Shown: positions 11,380 to 20,000 of the stretch, one piece after another | Layout: every line of letters starts with the position of its first letter | How positions within the stretch are numbered: the first letter of the stretch is position 1 | Virus record (IMG/VR): IMGVR_UViG_3300044706_000059 | Location: 56,332-76,331 of that record | Length of the DNA stretch: 20,000 nucleotides | Reading direction: 5' to 3' (one strand) | Source of the DNA: an uncultured virus (IMG/VR IMGVR_UViG_3300044706_000059) | Lineage: Duplodnaviria > Heunggongvirae > Uroviricota > Caudoviricetes > Crassvirales | Notes under the pieces: model-generated | Told to the model about the DNA's origin: nothing | What the model saw: only the letters and a program-made list of their open reading frames with translations | The model's database searches: none | Made by a program: the position numbers and the translations under genes

Positions 11380-11405
11380 AACCGTGGCATTAGTCACGGT
11401 TTTTT
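11380..11405 (+). terminator. Intrinsic terminator of late/lysis operon
   Basis: AACCGTGGC-ATTA-GTCACGGTT plus T run. Confidence 0.75.
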
Positions 11406-11423
11406 GCATTAAAAAAGCCCGGT

Positions 11424-11431
11424 TAAGACTA
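11424..11431 (+). repeat. Target-site duplication TAAGACTA, left copy
   Basis: Identical to 14639-14646 and abuts the left TIR. Confidence 0.9.
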
Positions 11432-11456
11432 GGTAATAACTACCAATTAGGGACAA
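11432..11456 (+). repeat. Left terminal inverted repeat GGTAATAACTACCAATTAGGGACAA
   Basis: 20/25 identical to the reverse complement of 14614-14638. Confidence 0.88.
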
Positions 11457-11463
11457 GGGCTTT

Positions 11464-11500
11464 AAAAGAAATAGCCTCCAAATTGGAGGCTATTTCTTTT
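11464..11500. terminator. Bidirectional terminator just inside the left end
   Basis: Perfect 17-bp inverted repeat AAAAGAAATAGCCTCCA-AAT-TGGAGGCTATTTCTTTT. Confidence 0.8.
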
Positions 11501-11621
11501 TCTTTTTAGCTTTCTTTTTGGGGGGAGTATTAGCCGCTATCTTCATGGCCTCCCCGAATGTCATATCAAGTTTGACGGTAATATTGGGAACTTGTTTCTT
11601 ACCTTTCTTGGTGGACTTCAT
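11490..11621 (-). CDS. Small Lys-rich protein (43 aa, MKSTKKGKKQVPNITVKLDMTFGEAMKIAANTPPKKKAKKKKK), not in ORF track
   Basis: ATG 9 bp after the transposase stop; TAG lies in the terminator arm. Confidence 0.65.
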   Translation of the reverse strand: MKSTKKGKKQVPNITVKLDMTFGEAMKIAANTPPKKKAKKKKK

Positions 11622-11630
11622 ACCCTAAAT

Positions 11631-12788
11631 CTACGCATATTTCCATTCAAAGCCTCCTGTAGAATGTCTTTGGCCTAGCAATACCAATCTAATTTTAGCT
11701 GGATCAAGATTGTTAATTTGTGCAGCTTCTTTAATTGACGGATATTGAGCTATTACTTCTCCATTCTTAATTTGTAACACAGCTATTTTTCTGCCATTTC
11801 CACCCTCAATTTTTATTTGGGGAGTAGGAATAGTAATTTCTATTTTAGGAGCGGGGCTTAGGATTAAATCTTTATACTTTAATCTCCCAGGAGCCTTTAT
11901 TAGTGCTAGTATAAACCGGTCTGCATCTTTCATTTTTCTCAGATTGTATCTGAAAGCCGTTTCTTCACAATACCGGTTTAAATGCTTTATGGTCACTTTG
12001 TGATAAGTGCCTATAATAGTTCTTTTTAAGTGACTGAATGCTCCTTCTATAGTATTTGTATAGATTACCTGATCCCGTACGTATTCGTTAATAGTATGAT
12101 TCACAGTTTCATGGGCTGCATAGTCGTTTTTTAATCCTACATAATTAGCGGAGGTATCTGTCATTAATACTGCATCTTTATCTACATTTTCTTGGATTAC
12201 TTTATGAACGATTGGTACGCCGCCTGTACTTTCTCCGCTGGAAATCAATTTTAATTCGCCACCTCTTTCCACGAGCCCCATTACCATTACTTTAGTATCA
12301 GCTACTGCATTTGCTTCTCTTAAAATCTTCCTTTTATGTTTGTTCATATTACTCACCTTACCACCTATATACACTTCATCCACTTCTACTATGTTGTCTA
12401 GCTTCACAGGTTCTTTGGGACGCATTATCTCCCTGATTCTGTGCAACATAAACCAGCTACATTTTTGGGAAATTCCTATATGTTTGGCTAATTGATAAGA
12501 TGAAATCCCTTTTTTATTAGCAGTAGCTAAATACATGGCAATGAACCATTTATTTAAAGGAATATTACTCGCCTCGAAGATTGTACCCACTTTAACGGAG
12601 AACTTTTTATAACATTCTTTATTGCCGCATTTGTACCGGGCTCCTTTTTCTATAGAATAACATTTATTATGATTACAGTAAGGACAAATAACTATCCCAT
12701 TGGGCCATCTTTGCTTTGCAAGATATTCACGGCAGGCTTGCTCGTCCGAGAGCTTTTGAATCAATTGCTGAAGGTTCTTAAACTCCAT
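11631..12788 (-). CDS. IS1595-family (ISXO2-like) DDE transposase with C-terminal NUMOD1-like domain
   Basis: Zn ribbon CPYC...CGNKEC, HTH ISSYQLAKHIGISQKCSWFMLHR, catalytic VEVDEVYIGG, LMTD, TNTIEGAFSHLKR; tail YPSIKEAA...STGGFEWKY. Confidence 0.95.
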   Translation of the reverse strand: MEFKNLQQLIQKLSDEQACREYLAKQRWPNGIVICPYCNHNKCYSIEKGARYKCGNKECYKKFSVKVGTIFEASNIPLNKWFIAMYLATANKKGISSYQLAKHIGISQKCSWFMLHRIREIMRPKEPVKLDNIVEVDEVYIGGKVSNMNKHKRKILREANAVADTKVMVMGLVERGGELKLISSGESTGGVPIVHKVIQENVDKDAVLMTDTSANYVGLKNDYAAHETVNHTINEYVRDQVIYTNTIEGAFSHLKRTIIGTYHKVTIKHLNRYCEETAFRYNLRKMKDADRFILALIKAPGRLKYKDLILSPAPKIEITIPTPQIKIEGGNGRKIAVLQIKNGEVIAQYPSIKEAAQINNLDPAKIRLVLLGQRHSTGGFEWKYA

Positions 12789-12794
12789 TTTGGC

Positions 12795-12825
12795 TTGATT
12801 TTAAAGAAAATCTTACCTACCTTTG
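12795..12825 (+). promoter_or_regulatory. Antisense-oriented promoter between transposase start and tRNA, overlapping an inverted repeat (12813-12835)
   Basis: TTG (12795-97), 20 nt, TACCTTTG (12818-25); TTACCTAC/GTAGGTAA inverted repeat. Confidence 0.6.
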
Positions 12826-12839
12826 GAGTAGGTAAAAGG

Positions 12840-12914
12840 TAGTCCTGGTGGGGCTCGGACCCACAACCTTCCGATTAGTAATCGGAAACTCTATCCCAAT
12901 TGAGCTACAGGACT
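12840..12914 (-). tRNA. tRNA(-like) gene, anticodon ACU (nominally Ser) on a short-arm Arg-like body
   Basis: AGTCCTG TA GCTC AATTGGGATA GAGT T TCCGA TTACTAA TCGGA AGGTT GTGGG TCCGAGC CCCAC CAGGACT A, followed by CCT; all four stems pair. Confidence 0.85.
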
Positions 12915-12974
12915 ATATATTACTTTTAGACTTGCGGATCTACCTTATGCTTTGTTAATCCGCTAGAATTTACT

Positions 12975-13020
12975 AAAAGACCACTTGTTTAAGTTTGGCG
13001 ACTGGGCAAGTGGTTTTTCT
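12975..13020 (+). ncRNA. Hairpin with UUGGCG loop and U tail; probable 3' part of a small antisense RNA
   Basis: ACCACTTGTTT/GGGCAAGTGGT stem needs G-U pairs so folds better on +; apical AGT-TTGGCG-ACT. Confidence 0.55.
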
Positions 13021-13021
13021 T

Positions 13022-13435
13022 TTATCTTGTAATCAATTCATACTGAATTTCTTTCCCCTCCTTTTCTATTCTTTTATATTTCTCCCCTTTATCTGCTGAT
13101 AAAGTTGCAGATACACTACTCCAAACCGACTTCATTTGAAGTTCAGGCTGAAATTCAAGGATGGCCCGCACAATCTCTTTACCGGTTAATGGCATCATGC
13201 TGGTTCGTAGAATGAAAGTTATTTTATTATTCCATGTCCAATTGGGGTCGTAATTTTCCCGAGAATGGCTATTATAAGGCTGTATCGACAGCCTCTTAAG
13301 ATTAGCAATTTTTTCATCTAACCTCTTTATTGCATAATTCAACTTATCTATCTGTTGTTGATATTCCTTCTTACTGGCTTCGTGCGCCTTTAATAATATA
13401 TCTATATCTTCTTTCTCTAAATTAGGCGAATACAT
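13022..13435 (-). CDS. Putative DNA-binding regulator: coiled coil plus winged-HTH-like domain (137 aa)
   Basis: Heptad N-terminus; WNNKITFILR..PLTGKEIVRAILE...VWSSVSATLS..YKRIE..IQYEL fits a wHTH pattern. Confidence 0.7.
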   Translation of the reverse strand: MYSPNLEKEDIDILLKAHEASKKEYQQQIDKLNYAIKRLDEKIANLKRLSIQPYNSHSRENYDPNWTWNNKITFILRTSMMPLTGKEIVRAILEFQPELQMKSVWSSVSATLSADKGEKYKRIEKEGKEIQYELITR

Positions 13436-13456
13436 TTGGCGACTGATTTAATACTG

Positions 13457-13488
13457 CAAACCTAGATACAAGCCTAGACATGACCAAA
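13457..13488 (-). promoter_or_regulatory. Promoter for regulator-tRNA-transposase unit
   Basis: Minus strand TTTG (13488-85), 20 nt, TAGGTTTG (13464-57). Confidence 0.65.
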
Positions 13489-13659
13489 TTTATTTCTAGG
13501 ATTGTTTTTAAAGTTGCTAGAAAATCTAGTAAAGGTGTTTTTTACACTAAGTAAAAAGAGTTTTAATTTCGCCAAATTCTTATTAAAACGGAATCTTTCG
13601 TTTGCATATATCGGTGCTTATTGTAATATTTGGCCCGACATAAAATAATTGCGTTAGCT

Positions 13660-13810
13660 CTCCCAGCTTTCCGAAACGACCAATTTTTACAAAGTATACG
13701 GGGGAACAGCGAAGCAGCACGCCTATGCGTGGGCTTTCGTCTGCTCGTATACATGGCGCTTGGTCGTGCCTGGAAAGCGGTGGATTGTTAAAGTCCCACG
13801 CTTTTTTTAT
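13660..13810 (+). ncRNA. GC-rich structured leader/attenuator ahead of cargo genes
   Basis: Nested stems GCTTTCC/GGAAAGC, ACGACCAA/TTGGTCGT, GTATACG/CGTATAC, CACGC/GCGTG; overlapping terminator AAAGCGGTGG...CCACGC plus T7. Confidence 0.65.
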
Positions 13811-13858
13811 TTATATCTCGCCTTCAAGGGACTGCAAGGCACCTAATACTTTTCTGCC

Positions 13859-14077
13859 ATGTCCCTGGCTAATATTACCGGTAAGAAAATAATAACATCC
13901 CTCCTTGGGCATTTCCTCAGTGAATTTAAATGGTATCGAAAATGGATTGGAGGCACCTGGTACAAGGTTCACGACCCTTATACCGGAACAGGATGGGGAG
14001 GATTTACAGAATGGACGCAAACAATACCCACCAGCGATACCGCCGAAATCCAGCTAACAGAATCATGGACTAATTAG
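13859..14077 (+). CDS. Transposon passenger, small Trp/Gly-rich protein (72 aa)
   Basis: First ORF after the leader; 5 bp gap to the next ORF. Confidence 0.6.
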   Translation: MSLANITGKKIITSLLGHFLSEFKWYRKWIGGTWYKVHDPYTGTGWGGFTEWTQTIPTSDTAEIQLTESWTN

Positions 14078-14082
14078 AATTT

Positions 14083-14484
14083 ATGACCGAGAATACTGTA
14101 TTATTCCATAACTCGATTATATTCGGCTTATTTATAGTTTGCCTTATTTGGGGATCAATTACAATTAGTTTTTATACTGCTAAGGAACTGGTGATTTATC
14201 ATAGATTAAAAAAGGGAGGCAAAGCATCTATTTTAGAGCAAGCAACATATTTTTTTATTGCAATAGTTGGATGCTCAATTATTGCCGGTTTATGTGGCGA
14301 AACTCCGAACATTCATCATTCCCCCACTTCCCTTACAATTGTAGCATTTATATCTCTATTCATTCCATCATCACTAGGAATTATTCTTGGATTAAATACA
14401 GAATCTAAAATGTCAGACAAAGAAAGAGCCATTAAAAGAATAAAAATGAAAGATGCTGAAAATGGAGACGAAGGACGGTATTAA
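14083..14484 (+). CDS. Transposon passenger, 3-TM membrane protein (133 aa)
   Basis: Three hydrophobic segments and a charged C-tail. Confidence 0.7.
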   Translation: MTENTVLFHNSIIFGLFIVCLIWGSITISFYTAKELVIYHRLKKGGKASILEQATYFFIAIVGCSIIAGLCGETPNIHHSPTSLTIVAFISLFIPSSLGIILGLNTESKMSDKERAIKRIKMKDAENGDEGRY

Positions 14485-14570
14485 GTTATAGAAGGGGGGC
14501 TTCAATTCAATGACATTGTAATAAACATTATTATTCTCCGTATGATTGATTACAAATTGATATGTAAATT

Positions 14571-14603
14571 AAAAAGGTAGACTAAAAATAGTCTACCTTT
14601 TTT
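14571..14603. terminator. Bidirectional terminator just inside the right end
   Basis: AAAAAGGTAGACTA-AAAA-TAGTCTACCTTTTT. Confidence 0.8.
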
Positions 14604-14613
14604 GTTAAGCCTT

Positions 14614-14638
14614 TTGTCCCATAAAGGTTGTTATTACC
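14614..14638 (-). repeat. Right terminal inverted repeat
   Basis: Reverse complement is GGTAATAACAACCTTTATGGGACAA. Confidence 0.88.
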
Positions 14639-14646
14639 TAAGACTA
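14639..14646 (+). repeat. Target-site duplication TAAGACTA, right copy
   Basis: Identical to 11424-11431. Confidence 0.9.
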
Positions 14647-14818
14647 ACCAGGCTTTGATTGATCGTACCCTTTAAAACAAATAGTTCTTAAAAAGTTTAA
14701 AAATTGGAAGCCCAACACAATCAAACTAACTAAAACTTAACTAACATGAGAAAAAATCCAGAAGATGAAATCTAGGCATATATAAAGAATACATCCCGCA
14801 GGGCTTCCAAAGGAGTTG

Positions 14819-15178
14819 CTATTGTAATGCTTTATCTTGTATGAATAGTTCCCAATGTTTCAGGTCTGCATCTGCATCTACATCCATTTCGTGACGAATT
14901 GCTATAGATAATGCATCCCACTGAGATAGGTTGTAATTCTTGACGAAATCAGCCAAACTATAAGTACATTCACCCTCAATTACAGAGTTAGTTGTAATAT
15001 CCACATCATCAATGCTGCCTATCGAAGATAATAATTCTAAATAATCAACAGGTTTAAGTATAAGGTGAAAATTTTTTGACTGATTGTTATGGCTGCGGAA
15101 ATAAGATATAGACATCAGTTCTTCCGTCATACTCCAATTAGTAACGGTAATCTGGTTTCTTAATTGTTGAGTGGTCAT
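14819..15178 (-). CDS. Hypothetical phage protein (119 aa)
   Basis: ORF with AT-rich initiation region in the minus-strand operon. Confidence 0.75.
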   Translation of the reverse strand: MTTQQLRNQITVTNWSMTEELMSISYFRSHNNQSKNFHLILKPVDYLELLSSIGSIDDVDITTNSVIEGECTYSLADFVKNYNLSQWDALSIAIRHEMDVDADADLKHWELFIQDKALQ

Positions 15179-15244
15179 TGGTTTAAGATTTAAAAGGTTT
15201 TAAAATAAGAAATCTCATGTAATGTGTGCGGGTTAAAAACGGGC

Positions 15245-16120
15245 TTATTCATTAAATATGGAACGAATTATTTCACCTCCATAGGCATTTTGAGTTAATT
15301 TAACAAAGGTTTCTACCGTCATTGAACCATCAAGAGTAATACCATTTTCTTTTAACCAATGTTTTTTACCAGATTCACAAGAACCTGTGAGAATTGTATG
15401 CCATTTGTAAAAAAGATCATTGGAATATTGATTTCCCGGTTTGAATTGGCTTTTAAATTCTAAAATGGCCTTCTCCTTATCAAGTGATGAGTAATACTTT
15501 ATATCTACGGCTTCATTAGCTTCCTTAATAGTTTCACCATGCGCAAATAAATTGCCTTTTTTAACTACATACATCGCAGAGGTTGAAAAATCGGCCACAT
15601 TAATAATTGAGACTAGTGCAACATTGCCTTTTATACTATCAAAAGTGCATGGTATTTTGTCGATATAGTAAACCTTTTTGACACCAATAGAAGAAAATAT
15701 AATGCCGTAGCTGTCGCCGTCGCCGTAGCCATCGCCGTAGCCGTAGCTGTTGCCGTAGCCGTTGCCGTAGCCGTTGCCGTTGCCGTCGCCGTTGCCGTCG
15801 CCGTTGCCGTCGCTGTTGCCGTAGCCGTTGCCGTTGCCGTCGCCGTTGCCGTCGCCGTCGCCGTTGCCGTCGCCGTAGCCATCACCGTAGCCGTCGCCGT
15901 TGCCGTCGCCGTCGCCGTAGCCGTAGCCGTAGCCATCACCGTAGCCGTCGCCGTTGCCGTCGCCGTCGCCGTCGCCGTTGCCGTAGCTGTTGCCGTAGCC
16001 GTTGCCGTAGCCGTAGCCGTAGCCGTAGCCGTTGCCGTCGCCGTTGCCGTCGCCGTCGCCGTTGCCGTAGCCATCGCCGTAGCCGTCTATTTTCAAGAAT
16101 TGTTTAATTATCTTTTCCAT
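15245..16120 (-). CDS. Phage protein with long G-[D/N/Y] dipeptide repeat and globular C-terminal domain (291 aa)
   Basis: GDGYGNG repeats then YIDKIP...FAHGETIKEA...WHTILTGSCESG; overlaps upstream gene by 13 bp. Confidence 0.85.
   Translation of the reverse strand: MEKIIKQFLKIDGYGDGYGNGDGDGNGDGNGYGYGYGYGNGYGNSYGNGDGDGDGNGDGYGDGYGYGYGDGDGNGDGYGDGYGDGNGDGDGNGDGNGNGYGNSDGNGDGNGDGNGNGYGNGYGNSYGYGDGYGDGDSYGIIFSSIGVKKVYYIDKIPCTFDSIKGNVALVSIINVADFSTSAMYVVKKGNLFAHGETIKEANEAVDIKYYSSLDKEKAILEFKSQFKPGNQYSNDLFYKWHTILTGSCESGKKHWLKENGITLDGSMTVETFVKLTQNAYGGEIIRSIFNE
15704..16087. repeat. Coding hexanucleotide tandem repeat GCCGT[A/C/T], about 64 units
   Basis: Directly visible; encodes the Gly-X repeat. 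Confidence 0.95.
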
Positions 16121-16410
16121 GCGCTTACTGAATTAATTGTTTTTAGGGCAGCTTCTGAAATTGGATGATATTCAATAACATTTAAGATAGTAGATTTATC
16201 GGCATCCCCTAATTGAGCCGAAAATTTACAGTTTGATGGCTTACTAACTCCATCAGTAGCGATTGTTACCACATCTAATGCCCCTGCCCAATAATATAAG
16301 CGCCTGGCATTAGTAATTACAAGAGTTGAACCTTTTTCTTCAATGATTTTACCGATGAAAACGCCAGCACGATCTGCGCGGATAATAGAGAATCCTGTTG
16401 TTTGTTTCAT
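16108..16410 (-). CDS. Conserved phage protein (DUF6948-like), typical partner of Gly-repeat gene
   Basis: IIRADRAGVFIG...NARRLYYWAGA...ATDGV motif; family assigned from memory. Confidence 0.7.
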   Translation of the reverse strand: MKQTTGFSIIRADRAGVFIGKIIEEKGSTLVITNARRLYYWAGALDVVTIATDGVSKPSNCKFSAQLGDADKSTILNVIEYHPISEAALKTINSVSAWKR

Positions 16411-16440
16411 GTTGATTTTATTTTTTGAGTTTTAGAATGT

Positions 16441-16722
16441 TTATTCAGGTGAATAATAAGAGCAAACTATATCATCCGTTTGCTTATCTACAACCAATAC
16501 TAGATTGCTTTCCCGGCATCTTACCCAATATAGCTTATGGTCGTATTTATGTGCTTTTAAATCGGACATTTTAGGGCATTCGAGGTAATGTTTTCGAGTG
16601 CAGGAACCAAAGAGCAAAGCCAATGTTATAATCAAGACAAGCACAAAAAAGAATCCGTGTATGTTTTGCCGTCTGGAATAGTGTGGGCCTTCGTAATAGG
16701 CTTTAGGGGTTTGCTTTTTCAT
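16441..16722 (-). CDS. Hypothetical single-TM/lipoprotein-like protein (93 aa)
   Basis: Hydrophobic segment ending FGSC; ATGA overlap with upstream gene. Confidence 0.7.
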   Translation of the reverse strand: MKKQTPKAYYEGPHYSRRQNIHGFFFVLVLIITLALLFGSCTRKHYLECPKMSDLKAHKYDHKLYWVRCRESNLVLVVDKQTDDIVCSYYSPE

Positions 16723-16904
16723 TTTCTCTTTCTTTTGCGTTTGGTTAATTTATATTCTCGCATTAAGGAGTGAATAAAGTCGTTTTGGGTTACTAAGTTT
16801 TCGTGTGGCATTCGTTTATTAGTACCGGCCCAATTGTGTTCCTGTCTATCCCAGCGCCTTATTTCAGAGATAAACGTTTGCCACTCGTTCATATTTCGTT
16901 TCAT
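16719..16904 (-). CDS. Small hypothetical protein (61 aa)
   Basis: 4-bp overlaps with both neighbours. Confidence 0.7.
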   Translation of the reverse strand: MKRNMNEWQTFISEIRRWDRQEHNWAGTNKRMPHENLVTQNDFIHSLMREYKLTKRKRKRK

Positions 16905-17209
16905 AAATTAATTTTACACCATTTGATAATTAACTCGGAATCCTTTTTATTGAGATAAAGCACATAATGTAAATACCTGCCTTCTTTATTGCTTCTCCAT
17001 TTGGCTTCGACCAGGTTAATTAATTGACCATAAGAGTGGAGAAGTTTGTAAAAAATAGTTTCATTGTCACATTGAATAATAGCAGTATCATTTACATAGC
17101 TAATTGTAGTTTCATCTGCTATTTTTACGGGAGTAGGTTGGGCATTTGCTTTTAACCAGAACGCGCCCACCAACGAAAGAACCAAAAAGATAATGATTGC
17201 TTTTTTCAT
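16901..17209 (-). CDS. Secreted hypothetical protein (102 aa)
   Basis: Signal peptide MKKAIIIFLVLSLVGAFWLKANA-Q. Confidence 0.75.
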   Translation of the reverse strand: MKKAIIIFLVLSLVGAFWLKANAQPTPVKIADETTISYVNDTAIIQCDNETIFYKLLHSYGQLINLVEAKWRSNKEGRYLHYVLYLNKKDSELIIKWCKINL

Positions 17210-17214
17210 GTTTG

Positions 17215-17448
17215 TTAATAAAAGGTTATAAATTGTTTTAATTGCTGAATTACAAGTGATTTATAAGCTATTATTAAGCAGATAATACCGGTTAACATAA
17301 CTATCGCTGATATTGCCGCCCACCAACTAAAGTAAATGGGCAAGGTCTATGGAACATTGCGTGTAATAAGCCATATACAACCAACATACGCCCATATAAT
17401 AAAACTGGCACTGGAAAGCGAGATTAATAACCAAGATATACGTTTCAT
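17215..17448 (-). pseudogene. 2-TM membrane protein gene interrupted by one in-frame TAG (17347-17349)
   Basis: MKRISWLLISLSSASFIIWAYVGCIWLITRNVP*TLPIYFSWWAAISAIVMLTGIICLIIAYKSLVIQQLKQFITFY; fills the gap between neighbours. Confidence 0.6.
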
Positions 17449-17460
17449 CGGTAATAAGTT

Positions 17461-17634
17461 TTAAAAGGTTAAATAAAAAGACTTTGAATTAATAAGAACC
17501 AATTGCCCACCTACTACAGCCCACACATTAAAGGTGGAGTGTGAATAACGACTACTAATAGTACCATCTAGGTTGAATGTTATTCTGTACTGTAGTTGGT
17601 CTTTTAGGGTTGATATGATAGTTGCGTGGTTCAT
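17461..17634 (-). CDS. Small hypothetical protein (57 aa, MNHATIISTLKDQ...), not in ORF track
   Basis: Hand-translated; tightly packed in operon. Confidence 0.55.
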   Translation of the reverse strand: MNHATIISTLKDQLQYRITFNLDGTISSRYSHSTFNVWAVVGGQLVLINSKSFYLTF

Positions 17635-17640
17635 AGCCCT

Positions 17641-17757
17641 TTAGTTATAGTATTTAATAGCTTCATAAATAGTTTCAAATGCTTCAAAGTCAGGGATATA
17701 AAGGGCCATACCACCGGAATAGCCTAATAAGGTAGCTTGATCAATTATTTCAGGCAT
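17641..17757 (-). CDS. Small hypothetical protein (38 aa, MPEIIDQATLLGYSGG...), not in ORF track
   Basis: Hand-translated; tightly packed in operon. Confidence 0.55.
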   Translation of the reverse strand: MPEIIDQATLLGYSGGMALYIPDFEAFETIYEAIKYYN

Positions 17758-17771
17758 AATTTAGAGGTTTA

Positions 17772-18014
17772 TTAACGTGAAAACGAAATACCTAATGCTA
17801 ATAATGCTTTCTCTCCGCGAAGTATTGCACAAGATAAATGAGTACCACTAGTATAATCGCATTCAACCAATTCCTTTAAAGCTAAAAGAGCTTCTTTGTA
17901 TTGTCCTTTTTGCCATTCAGCGCCATCTTTAAAAGCTACTTCTACTATTCGTTCACAGTTTACACCAGAGTTTCGAAGTGCATAATCAGCGGCATATTGA
18001 AAAATATCTGACAT
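17772..18014 (-). CDS. Hypothetical phage protein (80 aa)
   Basis: AFKDGAEWQK resembles a common small phage protein motif. Confidence 0.7.
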   Translation of the reverse strand: MSDIFQYAADYALRNSGVNCERIVEVAFKDGAEWQKGQYKEALLALKELVECDYTSGTHLSCAILRGEKALLALGISFSR

Positions 18015-18022
18015 ATAATATA

Positions 18023-18316
18023 TTAATAAAACTTTGAGATAATCTCGTTAGTCAAATCACTATCGTATTCTGGCTCATAAGGGTCACTAATTGCGTAAAG
18101 AGTAAGACGGCACATTAACGCATTTAATTTCGGGTCATTTAATTCCGCAGCACGCGAAGCCACTTCCTCCAACATGCCCGCAAATATCTGTAAGGGCCTT
18201 TTCAAAATGCCCGTACCGGGATTGTTAAGGATTTCTTGTAATAATCCTGGAGTATGGCAACGCCATTCAAGATTTCTACCAGGTACAAGAATTTCTTTAT
18301 TTTTTATAGTTGGCAT
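18023..18316 (-). CDS. Hypothetical phage protein (97 aa)
   Basis: Operon spacing, helical protein. Confidence 0.75.
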   Translation of the reverse strand: MPTIKNKEILVPGRNLEWRCHTPGLLQEILNNPGTGILKRPLQIFAGMLEEVASRAAELNDPKLNALMCRLTLYAISDPYEPEYDSDLTNEIISKFY

Positions 18317-18325
18317 AAAACAAGT

Positions 18326-18562
18326 TTAAGATTCTAAATATAATTCACCATCCACAGGGCTAAACTTATCAGAAGTAGCCGTTACGGTACTCTCTTTTAG
18401 TTGAACTGTTAAAATAGCTACTATTGCAGGGTTACTAGTACCATTAGGCCCCAATTCGATAGCCCTTAAAGTACCAATACGGCCATCGTCATATTGTAGT
18501 TTATCTCCGACTCTTATCCGTATGCCGACAGTGCGTTGTTTAGCAATATATTCGCGTAACAT
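18326..18562 (-). CDS. Small beta-rich (SH3/KOW-like) hypothetical protein (78 aa)
   Basis: IRVGDKL...GRIGTL pattern. Confidence 0.65.
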   Translation of the reverse strand: MLREYIAKQRTVGIRIRVGDKLQYDDGRIGTLRAIELGPNGTSNPAIVAILTVQLKESTVTATSDKFSPVDGELYLES

Positions 18563-18582
18563 AATATTGGTATTAAATGATT

Positions 18583-18612
18583 GAAAAATAGCCAGTTATT
18601 ACCGATACTGGC
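18583..18612 (-). terminator. Terminator-like hairpin within early operon
   Basis: Minus strand GCCAGT-N10-ACTGGC followed by TATTTTT. Confidence 0.55.
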
Positions 18613-18630
18613 AAACGGCCTGATGATCGC

Positions 18631-18648
18631 CTTGGTCGTGCCTGGAAA
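18631..18648. repeat. 18-bp exact copy of transposon leader segment 13759-13776 (CTTGGTCGTGCCTGGAAA)
   Basis: Direct comparison; both copies intergenic. Confidence 0.9.
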
Positions 18649-18656
18649 AAACTAGT

Positions 18657-18866
18657 TCAAAACCCAAATAATATTTGAAAAAAGTTAAGTTTTTTTGCTA
18701 TCAATAAGCCCGTATAAACATTAGCCGGAGTTCCAGAAAGGGAAGGATAGTTAGTTATTGCATATCCTTCGGGCAGACTTTCAATGGCATACAGCGTGTT
18801 TTCACAAAAACTTTTATAGCTTTCTGCTTCAATGATAAGAACAACATATTTAGGTTTAGTTTTCAT
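18657..18866 (-). CDS. Hypothetical phage protein (69 aa)
   Basis: Operon spacing. Confidence 0.65.
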   Translation of the reverse strand: MKTKPKYVVLIIEAESYKSFCENTLYAIESLPEGYAITNYPSLSGTPANVYTGLLIAKKLNFFQILFGF

Positions 18867-18888
18867 TAAGTCTAGTTTATGTTATTAG

Positions 18889-19143
18889 TTAGTTTCCGGC
18901 AATTTCATTCCATACTACTTCCAATTCAGCTATTTCTAAGGCAGATAATTCATATTCCTCATCGGCAGGCGCATTGTAAATGCACACACATTCGTTGTCT
19001 TGTCTTTCTTTAAAGGCTGCAAAACTGGCCTCATCAACGGAATCAAAATAACCAATCAATCGCTCAGACAATACATTGTCATTTAAATCTAAAATCGCAC
19101 AAGTAGCCTTAATTTGTTGATTATCAGAAATGAACTTTGACAT
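18889..19143 (-). CDS. Acidic hypothetical phage protein (84 aa)
   Basis: Operon spacing; D/E-rich. Confidence 0.7.
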   Translation of the reverse strand: MSKFISDNQQIKATCAILDLNDNVLSERLIGYFDSVDEASFAAFKERQDNECVCIYNAPADEEYELSALEIAELEVVWNEIAGN

Positions 19144-19171
19144 AAATAGTTAGTATTAAAGGGGTGAATAA

Positions 19172-19438
19172 TTAGTTGATATAATGATATCTAGCCGCAT
19201 GCTTGAGCAGGCATACTTGTTCCGCTAATGTTTTATAGCATTTACCAAATTCATCTTTGCGTGTCCAACCAACGCGATTGGCGGCCATATCCCATTTGGC
19301 TAAGGGTAAGGTATTAAGGTGGTCGTCGCCGTTGTTAAGAGCTTGTTTAACTTGCTCTTTTGTGAACGGTATATAATTTACGACTTCTGGTTTAGCCTTG
19401 AATAACGTTTCATATTTATCAAAGTGTGAGTTAGACAT
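19172..19438 (-). CDS. Hypothetical phage protein (88 aa)
   Basis: DDHLNTLPLAKWD...LAEQVCLLKHAAR; operon spacing. Confidence 0.75.
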   Translation of the reverse strand: MSNSHFDKYETLFKAKPEVVNYIPFTKEQVKQALNNGDDHLNTLPLAKWDMAANRVGWTRKDEFGKCYKTLAEQVCLLKHAARYHYIN

Positions 19439-19471
19439 ATAGTTATAGTTTTAAAGGTTAATTACTTAATA

Positions 19472-19576
19472 TTAACGAGCGTAAGAAAGGTTATTAAAGC
19501 CAGTAAAGTAAACCAGAGATACGATAGCTATTATGATTGCTATTCCTAAGACAGTGGGGGTGATAAGTTTTTTCAT
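19472..19576 (-). CDS. Small single-TM peptide (34 aa, MKKLITPTVLGIAIIIAIVSLVYFTGFNNLSYAR), not in ORF track
   Basis: First ORF after the promoter at 19614-19646. Confidence 0.55.
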   Translation of the reverse strand: MKKLITPTVLGIAIIIAIVSLVYFTGFNNLSYAR

Positions 19577-19613
19577 AATTTCCAAGTATTAGTTTGTGTG
19601 TTGTTTGACAAGT

Positions 19614-19646
19614 CAAAGATAATATCTTTTATCGTCGCAATCCAAA
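19614..19646 (-). promoter_or_regulatory. Consensus-like early promoter
   Basis: Minus strand TTTG (19646-43), 21 nt, TATCTTTG (19621-14). Confidence 0.7.
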
Positions 19647-19675
19647 TTTATTTTGAAGTATTTTTAAAATATTTT

Positions 19676-19951
19676 TTACTGTTGATAATTAATAACATAG
19701 CAGGTGCCGAAAAAGTCTATAATATCATATCCTGGATGAGCTGTCTTTAATCGGGTGCCTGCATTAGTGGTGTAACCAAAGATGTGACGATCATATTTAA
19801 CATATGCGTATGCTGGGGACGACACGCCGAATTTCTTACCATATCTCCTAAAAAATACACTAACTGGTATTGCATCTGCGGGCAATACCTCGCGCGATTC
19901 ATATTTAGTGCCAGATATTCTCATACGTGCGAAGATACTATCATTTATCAT
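19676..19951 (-). CDS. Hypothetical phage protein (about 91 aa)
   Basis: Track ORF starts at TTG 19960; ATG 19951 is preferred. Confidence 0.65.
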   Translation of the reverse strand: MINDSIFARMRISGTKYESREVLPADAIPVSVFFRRYGKKFGVSSPAYAYVKYDRHIFGYTTNAGTRLKTAHPGYDIIDFFGTCYVINYQQ

Positions 19952-20000
19952 TCTCCCCAAATCTTCTTTCTTTTACGCTAATCCCCACCTCCCGCTATAC

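Follow-up and report, generated by a model that had tools for sequence, protein, structure and literature searches.

A structured leader RNA carried by a transposon in a soil phage genome, and an 18-nt match to it in the phage backbone

In pCF10, P4 CI and P1-P7 c4, whether transcription terminates in a leader or continues through it depends on pairing of the leader with a small antisense RNA; this RNA and its targets lie within one element and are co-inherited, and the c4/CI type usually has two or more targets. Here we analyse a leader RNA found in the last 20 kb (20,000 nt, hereafter referred to as the window) of the 76,331-base record of an uncultured soil phage (IMG/VR IMGVR_UViG_3300044706_000059, genome G000), where it precedes the cargo genes of an IS1595-family transposon at positions 11432-14638 and shares an 18-nt segment, CTTGGTCGTGCCTGGAAA, with the phage backbone outside the transposon. 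A described system of comparable layout is cATTpLS20, the zipper-type attenuator of the Bacillus conjugative plasmid pLS20 (PMC13401043); that paper also mentions the counter-transcript attenuation of pCF10. As for the transposon, PMC8101967 gives terminal inverted repeats and an 8-bp target duplication as features of IS1595.

In its layout, the window leader resembles a zipper-type attenuator. In cATTpLS20, an intrinsic terminator stands behind a long imperfect stem-loop, sequence upstream of this stem complements the terminator's 5' arm so that the stem can extend as an antiterminator, this antiterminator is the expected default since it is made first, and the whole lies on a mobile element ahead of an operon (PMC13401043). 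The same would apply to the window leader. There is no sequence relation between the two, and whereas cATTpLS20 belongs to plasmids of Firmicutes, measures 456 nt and heads conAn1 and the conjugation genes, the window leader belongs to Bacteroidota and phages, measures about 170 nt and stands before cargo encoding small exported proteins (PMC13401043). The window leader has extra conserved motifs, namely an apical GCGUGGG, a tail GUCCCACGC and a downstream GGGAC loop, while the weak upstream stem-loop of cATTpLS20, which competes for the upstream sequence (PMC13401043), has a doubtful counterpart here (AGCU-CUCCC-AGCU, -2.8 kcal/mol, z -2.2), with no obvious conservation elsewhere in the family as judged by eye. 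Attenuation by cATTpLS20 has been demonstrated by experiment (PMC13401043), whereas for the window leader it is inferred.

We propose, with a probability of about 0.55, that the segment of approximately 13640-13850 is a cis-acting 5' leader which would work as a transcription attenuator for whatever cargo follows, and that its match with the phage backbone is fortuitous. The leader would be transcribed from its own promoter and its long imperfect stem would fold first, the base of this stem sequestering the 5' arm of the terminator (13774-13810) and thereby giving read-through by default; unzipping of the stem base would then let the terminator form. Should this be true, the zipper-type mechanism would extend to another phylum and to transposon cargo. 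The durable result is the leader itself, a new and well-supported family of structured leader RNAs, organised as a cassette of about 200 nt and found in front of cargo for small exported or membrane proteins on transposons, integrative elements and phages of Bacteroidota; it moreover offers a defined RNA for termination and structure-probing assays.

Both the fold and a covariance model place the leader at 13655-13810 on the plus strand, as a long imperfect stem whose base overlaps the terminator. The fold reaches -57.1 kcal/mol (z -3.9): helix Pb pairs 13760-67 with 13676-83, helix Pa pairs 13771-78 with 13666-73, an internal loop GCC lies in the stem, and basal helices join 13655-58 and 13661-64 with 13780-90. 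The covariance model (R1), built from two leader copies, that of the window and that of a second phage (G002), matched the leader in 15 loci. In the 15-sequence alignment, which was fitted to the covariance model and hence somewhat favours the structure, compensatory change was found in 43 of 46 pairs, and 92.1% of the pair cells were paired, compared with 32-43% with slid partners; none of 500 shuffles reached the observed values. The two basal helices (1 and 2) each displayed compensatory change in all four of their pairs (85 and 83% of cells paired, respectively). The pair cells included 54 G-U against 9 A-C combinations, which favours an RNA of the leader strand over a DNA palindrome. No Rfam 15 family overlapped the leader at gathering score in the window or in 11 other leader-holding loci, nor was any Rfam match obtained over 13640-13810 at E values up to 10; a tRNA was the sole Rfam hit in the window at gathering score. 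The hairpin 13655-13810 is a genuine structured RNA of a family absent from Rfam 15, and its description in an earlier, sequence-only reading of this DNA as an attenuator-like leader before cargo genes is borne out by the covariation, by co-oriented open reading frames (ORFs) and by the alternative folds of stem and terminator.

Across the family, helices Pa and Pb drift in sequence with compensatory changes, and one version of Pb, ACGACCAA/UUGGUCGU, recurs with small variations in seven of 16 copies (counted by eye). The apical and tail motifs are conserved, as is in many cases the GGGAC loop before the start codon, and together they suggest further pairing. Apical-to-tail pairing, GCGUGGG with CCCACGC, is possible: 91.7% of its cells are paired, double changes occur in two pairs only, and 33 of 500 shuffles reached this. 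In the window, the GGGAC sequence occupies the loop of a small hairpin at 13820-13840 (plus strand), between the U run and the start codon (fold z only -0.8), and is complementary to GUCCC of the leader tail; by eye, about ten of the 16 family members have a similar loop, with GGGAC or GGAAC, on their downstream side. As a separate observation, locus L084 holds an exact 17-nt copy of the 5' helix strand of its leader at 2572-2588 (RNA-oriented), 5 nt behind the RNA and 2 nt short of the start codon of a lipoprotein ORF, where it could act as an alternative partner of the 3' strand, masking the start region.

The intrinsic terminator, a hairpin with a U run at 13774-13810 on the plus strand, competes through its 5' arm with the base of the long stem. 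Folded alone, 13774-13804 yields -12.8 kcal/mol (z -3.9) and is followed by the U run, with -13.2 kcal/mol for the copy of G002; in the full fold the bases of the 5' arm pair with 13655-64 and 13666-68 instead. Since the stem is made first and its base overlaps the 5' arm, the terminator would be excluded. The window copy has its terminator directly behind the long stem. Elsewhere in the family many leaders have no local 5' arm, and their conserved tail may find its partner in the apical GCGUGGG; for the family as a whole, such a terminator is a possible feature.

Comparison of the loci carrying the leader revealed that it is specific neither to the cargo nor to the transposase of the window. 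Phage G002 (84,697 bases, complete by the estimate of its record) carries a related transposon, with a transposase 75% identical in DNA and 78% in protein and with different cargo; the leader block is 96% identical between the two phages, from a promoter-like element through the U run. This element, at 13601-13632 on the plus strand, consists of TTTG, a spacer of 19-20 nt and TAATATTTG, and was assigned by eye against the Bacteroidota -33/-7 consensus; the identity between the two cassettes starts at its TTTG. Two more transposons of about 3.3 kb enclose a leader RNA and cargo between inverted repeats, and diverged leader copies adjoin IS1595-type transposases in bacterial genomes and metagenomes. 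A tie between leader and transposase was considered and rejected, as besides G002 only six of 163 transposase-anchored loci had the leader at E values below 0.01 (one more at E 0.05), and none of the seven chromosomal copies had the transposase within 5 kb. The neighbours of the chromosomal leaders look, by eye, like genes of conjugative or mobilisable elements. Among sampled genomes, the leader occurred in five of 151 from the family of one host, one of them with three copies, and in three of 151 from a sample of the phylum (reference genome G004 being counted in both cases). In an 80-kb contig of sequencing run X7, from another study, only the leader cassette was present (13618-13807, with 4 base differences and 2 indels), 41 kb away from an empty transposon site and without the transposase or cargo of the window. 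This contig and the survey of contexts indicate that the leader behaves as a cassette of about 200 nt (190-210 nt). A co-oriented ORF starting with ATG follows 6-50 nt behind the leader in 11 of 16 loci and within 400 nt in 15 of them; of these 15 first ORFs, ten encode an N-terminal stretch of at least 11 hydrophobic residues, and three of them have a lipobox by a simple pattern. In a literature search on IS1595 and non-coding RNA, no title or abstract dealt with a leader of this kind. Two bacterial leaders have Rfam cis-regulatory RNA motifs in their neighbourhood, at a distance of a few kb at most, namely DUF3800-VI and DUF805b (L028 4597-4650 and L192 9407-9441, both on the plus strand).

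The 3207-bp segment 11432-14638 is an IS1595-family transposon with passenger genes, recently inserted into the phage, in agreement with its earlier description as a cargo-bearing transposon. It is flanked by an 8-bp target-site duplication, TAAGACTA, at 11424-11431 on the left and 14639-14646 on the right; both junctions were aligned with the empty site of the sibling phage G003, in which the uninterrupted target has a single TAAGACTA and the surroundings are 97.7-99.8% identical. The terminal inverted repeats are imperfect, and both ends begin with GGTAATAAC. In run X3, which stems from the source's own sample, a contig joins 11423 to 14639, with 8 letters fitting either side, and the empty-site junction was also present in a contig of run X7, from a more diverged relative. 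These contigs show that the insertion is recent and polymorphic; element-bearing and element-free forms of the phage occur side by side in one sample, which thus provides a natural pair of genomes. By eye only, a likeness was noticed between a leader helix and the inverted repeat of the transposon (AACGACCAATT against AACTACCAATT).

The transposase, encoded on the minus strand at 11631-12788 (385 aa), contains a zinc ribbon (PF12760, residues 15-59, E 9.2e-9), a DDE_Tnp_IS1595 domain (PF12762, E 1.6e-33) and a C-terminal NUMOD-like DNA-binding domain (PF22083), and matches NCBIfam NF033547 with 178.6 bits (cut-off 75). Its 2206 homologues, as far as they are named, come from Chitinophagaceae, Ferruginibacter and other Bacteroidota. 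The closest clade shares the extra NUMOD-like domain (residues 341-381), a type of domain typical of homing endonucleases, while more distant IS1595 relatives match residues 1-309 only and do not have it. Subgroups of IS1595 with passenger genes were reportedly distinguished by Siguier et al. in 2009. The window element shares with IS1595, as described in PMC8101967, a DDE_Tnp_IS1595 domain, an N-terminal zinc ribbon, the terminal inverted repeats and the 8-bp duplication; what it has beyond them is a tRNA gene, the structured leader, three passenger ORFs and an insertion in a phage genome, along with the added C-terminal domain of its transposase. The tRNA gene (12838-12914, minus strand; Rfam tRNA 60.4 bits, also called by ARAGORN) has an anticodon read as ACU and is labelled Ser by ARAGORN, yet the long variable arm that serine tRNAs have is missing; in the related element of G002 there is no tRNA gene. 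The passenger ORFs comprise one of 137 aa on the minus strand (13022-13435) and, behind the leader on the plus strand (13859-14484), one of 72 aa (13859-14077) and one encoding a 133-aa membrane protein (14083-14484). None of the three had a match in Pfam, PHROG, PADLOC or NCBIfam, and no relatives of ORF 14083-14484 were found in viral contigs.

The window contains two copies of the 18-mer CTTGGTCGTGCCTGGAAA, one at 13759-13776 inside the transposon and one at 18631-18648 outside it, both on the plus strand and without mismatch, as the sequence-only reading had stated. No further site was found in the window at up to 3 mismatches, nor any additional copy in the whole 76,331-base record at up to 2 mismatches, and two matches were reached in none of 200 shuffles. 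The identity is limited to 18 bases (19 if the A after the phage site is counted), and neither flank is similar. Copy 1 takes in the 3' strands of Pb (13760-67) and Pa (13771-76) together with the conserved GCC loop, and with its last three bases it reaches into the 5' arm of the terminator hairpin 13774-13804, so that the folds agree with the earlier placement of the segment on the 3' side of the cis helices, touching the terminator arm. Copy 2 is intergenic, within an operon of small ORFs on the minus strand: the stop codon of minus ORF 18657-18866 precedes it by 8 nt, and ORF 18326-18562 starts 68 nt after it. Transcription at 18631 presumably runs in the direction of this operon and, provided that the operon is transcribed through 18648-18631, the two RNAs would be complementary, as had been claimed. 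The site is also present in the element-free sibling G003, which had been singled out earlier as a point to check; it therefore belongs to the phage and predates the insertion. In IMG/VR the 18-mer is found at only three other loci, namely the leader of G002, the sibling G003 and an unrelated coding sequence (G001/L003). The latter was considered as a third target and rejected, as the 18-mer lies within a 185-aa ORF, where it encodes FPGTTK; by our own estimate about one such chance hit is expected in the collection.

With odds somewhat better than even, the 18-mer match is fortuitous and has no dedicated regulatory role. Phage G002, whose leader contains the identical 18-mer, holds it nowhere else even with 3 mismatches allowed, and the leaders L191, L192 and L028 have no second site for the equivalent 20-mer at up to 2 mismatches in their own genomes. 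Together with G003, which holds the site without the element, these genomes speak against the expectation that the two 18-mers travel together or that partner sites exist across related pairs. In genome G004 (C23:357697-357716, minus strand), there is a relative of the L028 helix strand with 3 mismatches (GATGCCAGTACCTCTCCGCC), which may be a second, diverged leader copy. The predicted situation also differs from pCF10, P4 CI and c4, which it parallels in that an antisense RNA on a leader would set termination against read-through: here the partners belong to two separate mobile entities found apart in G002 and G003. In contrast to P4 CI and c4, the genome has a single target site, there is no Rfam c4 match, and the complementarity falls on that strand of a closed helix which is made late. 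As this 3' strand emerges when its intramolecular partner is already present, the phage RNA would have to displace that partner, and would have to do so within about 35 nt before the U run in order to affect termination. Control of the cargo by a phage antisense RNA, the central claim of the sequence-only reading, is accordingly unsupported by comparison and mechanistically awkward.

Several observations weigh against a fortuitous match. By our own arithmetic, the chance that an 18-mer from a 150-nt RNA recurs in 152,000 positions is about 3e-4, with which coincidence is not a comfortable explanation, even though a handful of such coincidences is still to be expected in about 250,000 windows scanned; moreover, the match falls exactly on the strand adjoining the terminator arm. 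Pairing of the two RNAs is energetically favourable overall, as the 18-bp duplex yields -33.6 kcal/mol, opening costs 16.7 (leader helix) and 8.2, and the dimer gains -16.4. The lack of a second site in G002 is compatible with a function particular to the present phage lineage, for which the X7 relative offers no comparison, its homology ending at 18618, 13 nt short of the 18-mer. The strand copy in L084 demonstrates that competitor strands do occur in the leader family, and in pLS20 an oligonucleotide against the antiterminator promotes termination, with a counter-transcript raised by the authors as a possible natural trigger (PMC13401043). We nevertheless regard functional pairing, in either direction, as improbable, and RNA cross-talk between two independent mobile elements as a minority reading; if it did function, the match would stand as a rare example of RNA pairing by which one mobile element reads another's transcription. 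Its more plausible form, itself unlikely, is a counter-transcript: RNA of the minus operon would pair with 13759-76 and unzip Pa and Pb, freeing the terminator arm or making an RNase III substrate, and during transcription of the phage operon the cargo would be switched, probably off. Exact complementarity over 18 nt, the low chance probability, the adjacent terminator arm, the net pairing energy and the pLS20 precedent speak for it, and the presence of the site in element-free G003 fits an origin on the phage side. Against these stand the lack of co-occurrence or covariation, with the G002 leader having no site and the partner site missing in three of three other members, the competition with the intramolecular partner in a -57 kcal/mol hairpin that leaves no toehold beyond the 3-nt GCC loop, and a phage intergenic region with no significant structure of its own (z -0.7 and z -1.2). 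A yet more specific version, which we consider slightly less likely again, is that evolution equipped the phage with an 18-nt anti-leader aimed at cargo switches of host transposons and integrative elements, possibly before this transposon arrived, and that the site now controls the inserted element.

The reverse direction, in which the terminated leader would be a small RNA that targets the mRNA of the phage operon at 18648-18631, affecting the phage hairpin 18591-18612 or expression of ORF 18326-18562, is very unlikely. The same 18-nt complementarity would serve it, and the leader's own promoter-like element and terminator make a separate RNA of about 170 nt plausible, but the 18-mer is buried in covarying helices at the opening cost given above, the family lives mostly on bacterial chromosomal elements with no such target, G002 has no target either, and the phage hairpin is weak and is not called a terminator. 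About as unlikely as the counter-transcript is a historical trace, according to which an earlier recombination between a leader and the phage left the 18-mer at 18631 behind, as a remnant or a junction, functionless and kept by chance. That the leader moves between contexts as a cassette agrees with this, as does the end of the X7 homology at 18618, which puts the site at the edge of a variable block, and there is a weak model alignment (5.7 bits, E 0.27) of 18589-18678 with the leader minus its apical part. Yet in the 76-kb genome the family profile hidden Markov models built without the window row pick out the true leader alone, and the phage site is not recognisable as a relic of the leader; 18589-18618 is not among 37 hits of the 5' strand, no tail hit lies near 18650-18700, and the identity stops so sharply on both sides that a breakpoint exactly at each end would be required of a relic. 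The least credible of the alternatives is a signal at the DNA level, the 18-mer being an operator or dispersed repeat bound by a common protein. Here one may point to the phage copy lying about 18 nt upstream of a minus-strand promoter-like TTTG-21 nt-TATTTTTC (by eye), but the genome holds only the two copies, the other IMG/VR occurrences are those listed above, no exact copy exists among 401 sampled genomes of a host-like family, in which 61 near-matches (1-2 mismatches) are scattered singletons, and at the leader the sequence forms an RNA helix. The objection that the 18-mer might be a dispersed repeat, which the sequence-only reading had itself anticipated, is answered by these counts. A cis attenuator with a fortuitous match is the most likely reading.

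As regards the phage site itself, a terminator had been proposed at 18583-612. A 6-bp hairpin (GCCAGU/ACUGGC) does exist there, at 18591-18612 on the minus strand and followed by UAUUUUUC, but it is weak and not among the calls of the terminator scan; it is either a weak terminator or the spacer of the promoter-like element containing TATTTTTC. For ORF 18326-18562, a single-protein scan found only the sibling G003, and seven homologues are known (51-100% identity); a profile scan of viral contigs added only two loci of 33% identity, which have no comparable intergenic region. The ORFs flanking the phage site had no PADLOC or NCBIfam matches, and megablast of 11400-20000 against the phage record collection gave no match. 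Beyond 18618, the X7 relative matches only 18865-18891, 19153-19174 and 19442 onward; the matched stretches of 21-27 nt lie in successive intergenic gaps of the minus operon and may represent start-region or promoter repeats. The same relative does not have 15221-16405, a region which in the window holds, at 15245-16120 on the minus strand, the gene of a 291-aa protein, composed for the most part of 12- and 18-nt tandem repeats encoding GYGNGD-type units and a weak TrAA12-like Pfam match, and on whose repeat many unrelated metagenome contigs pile up.

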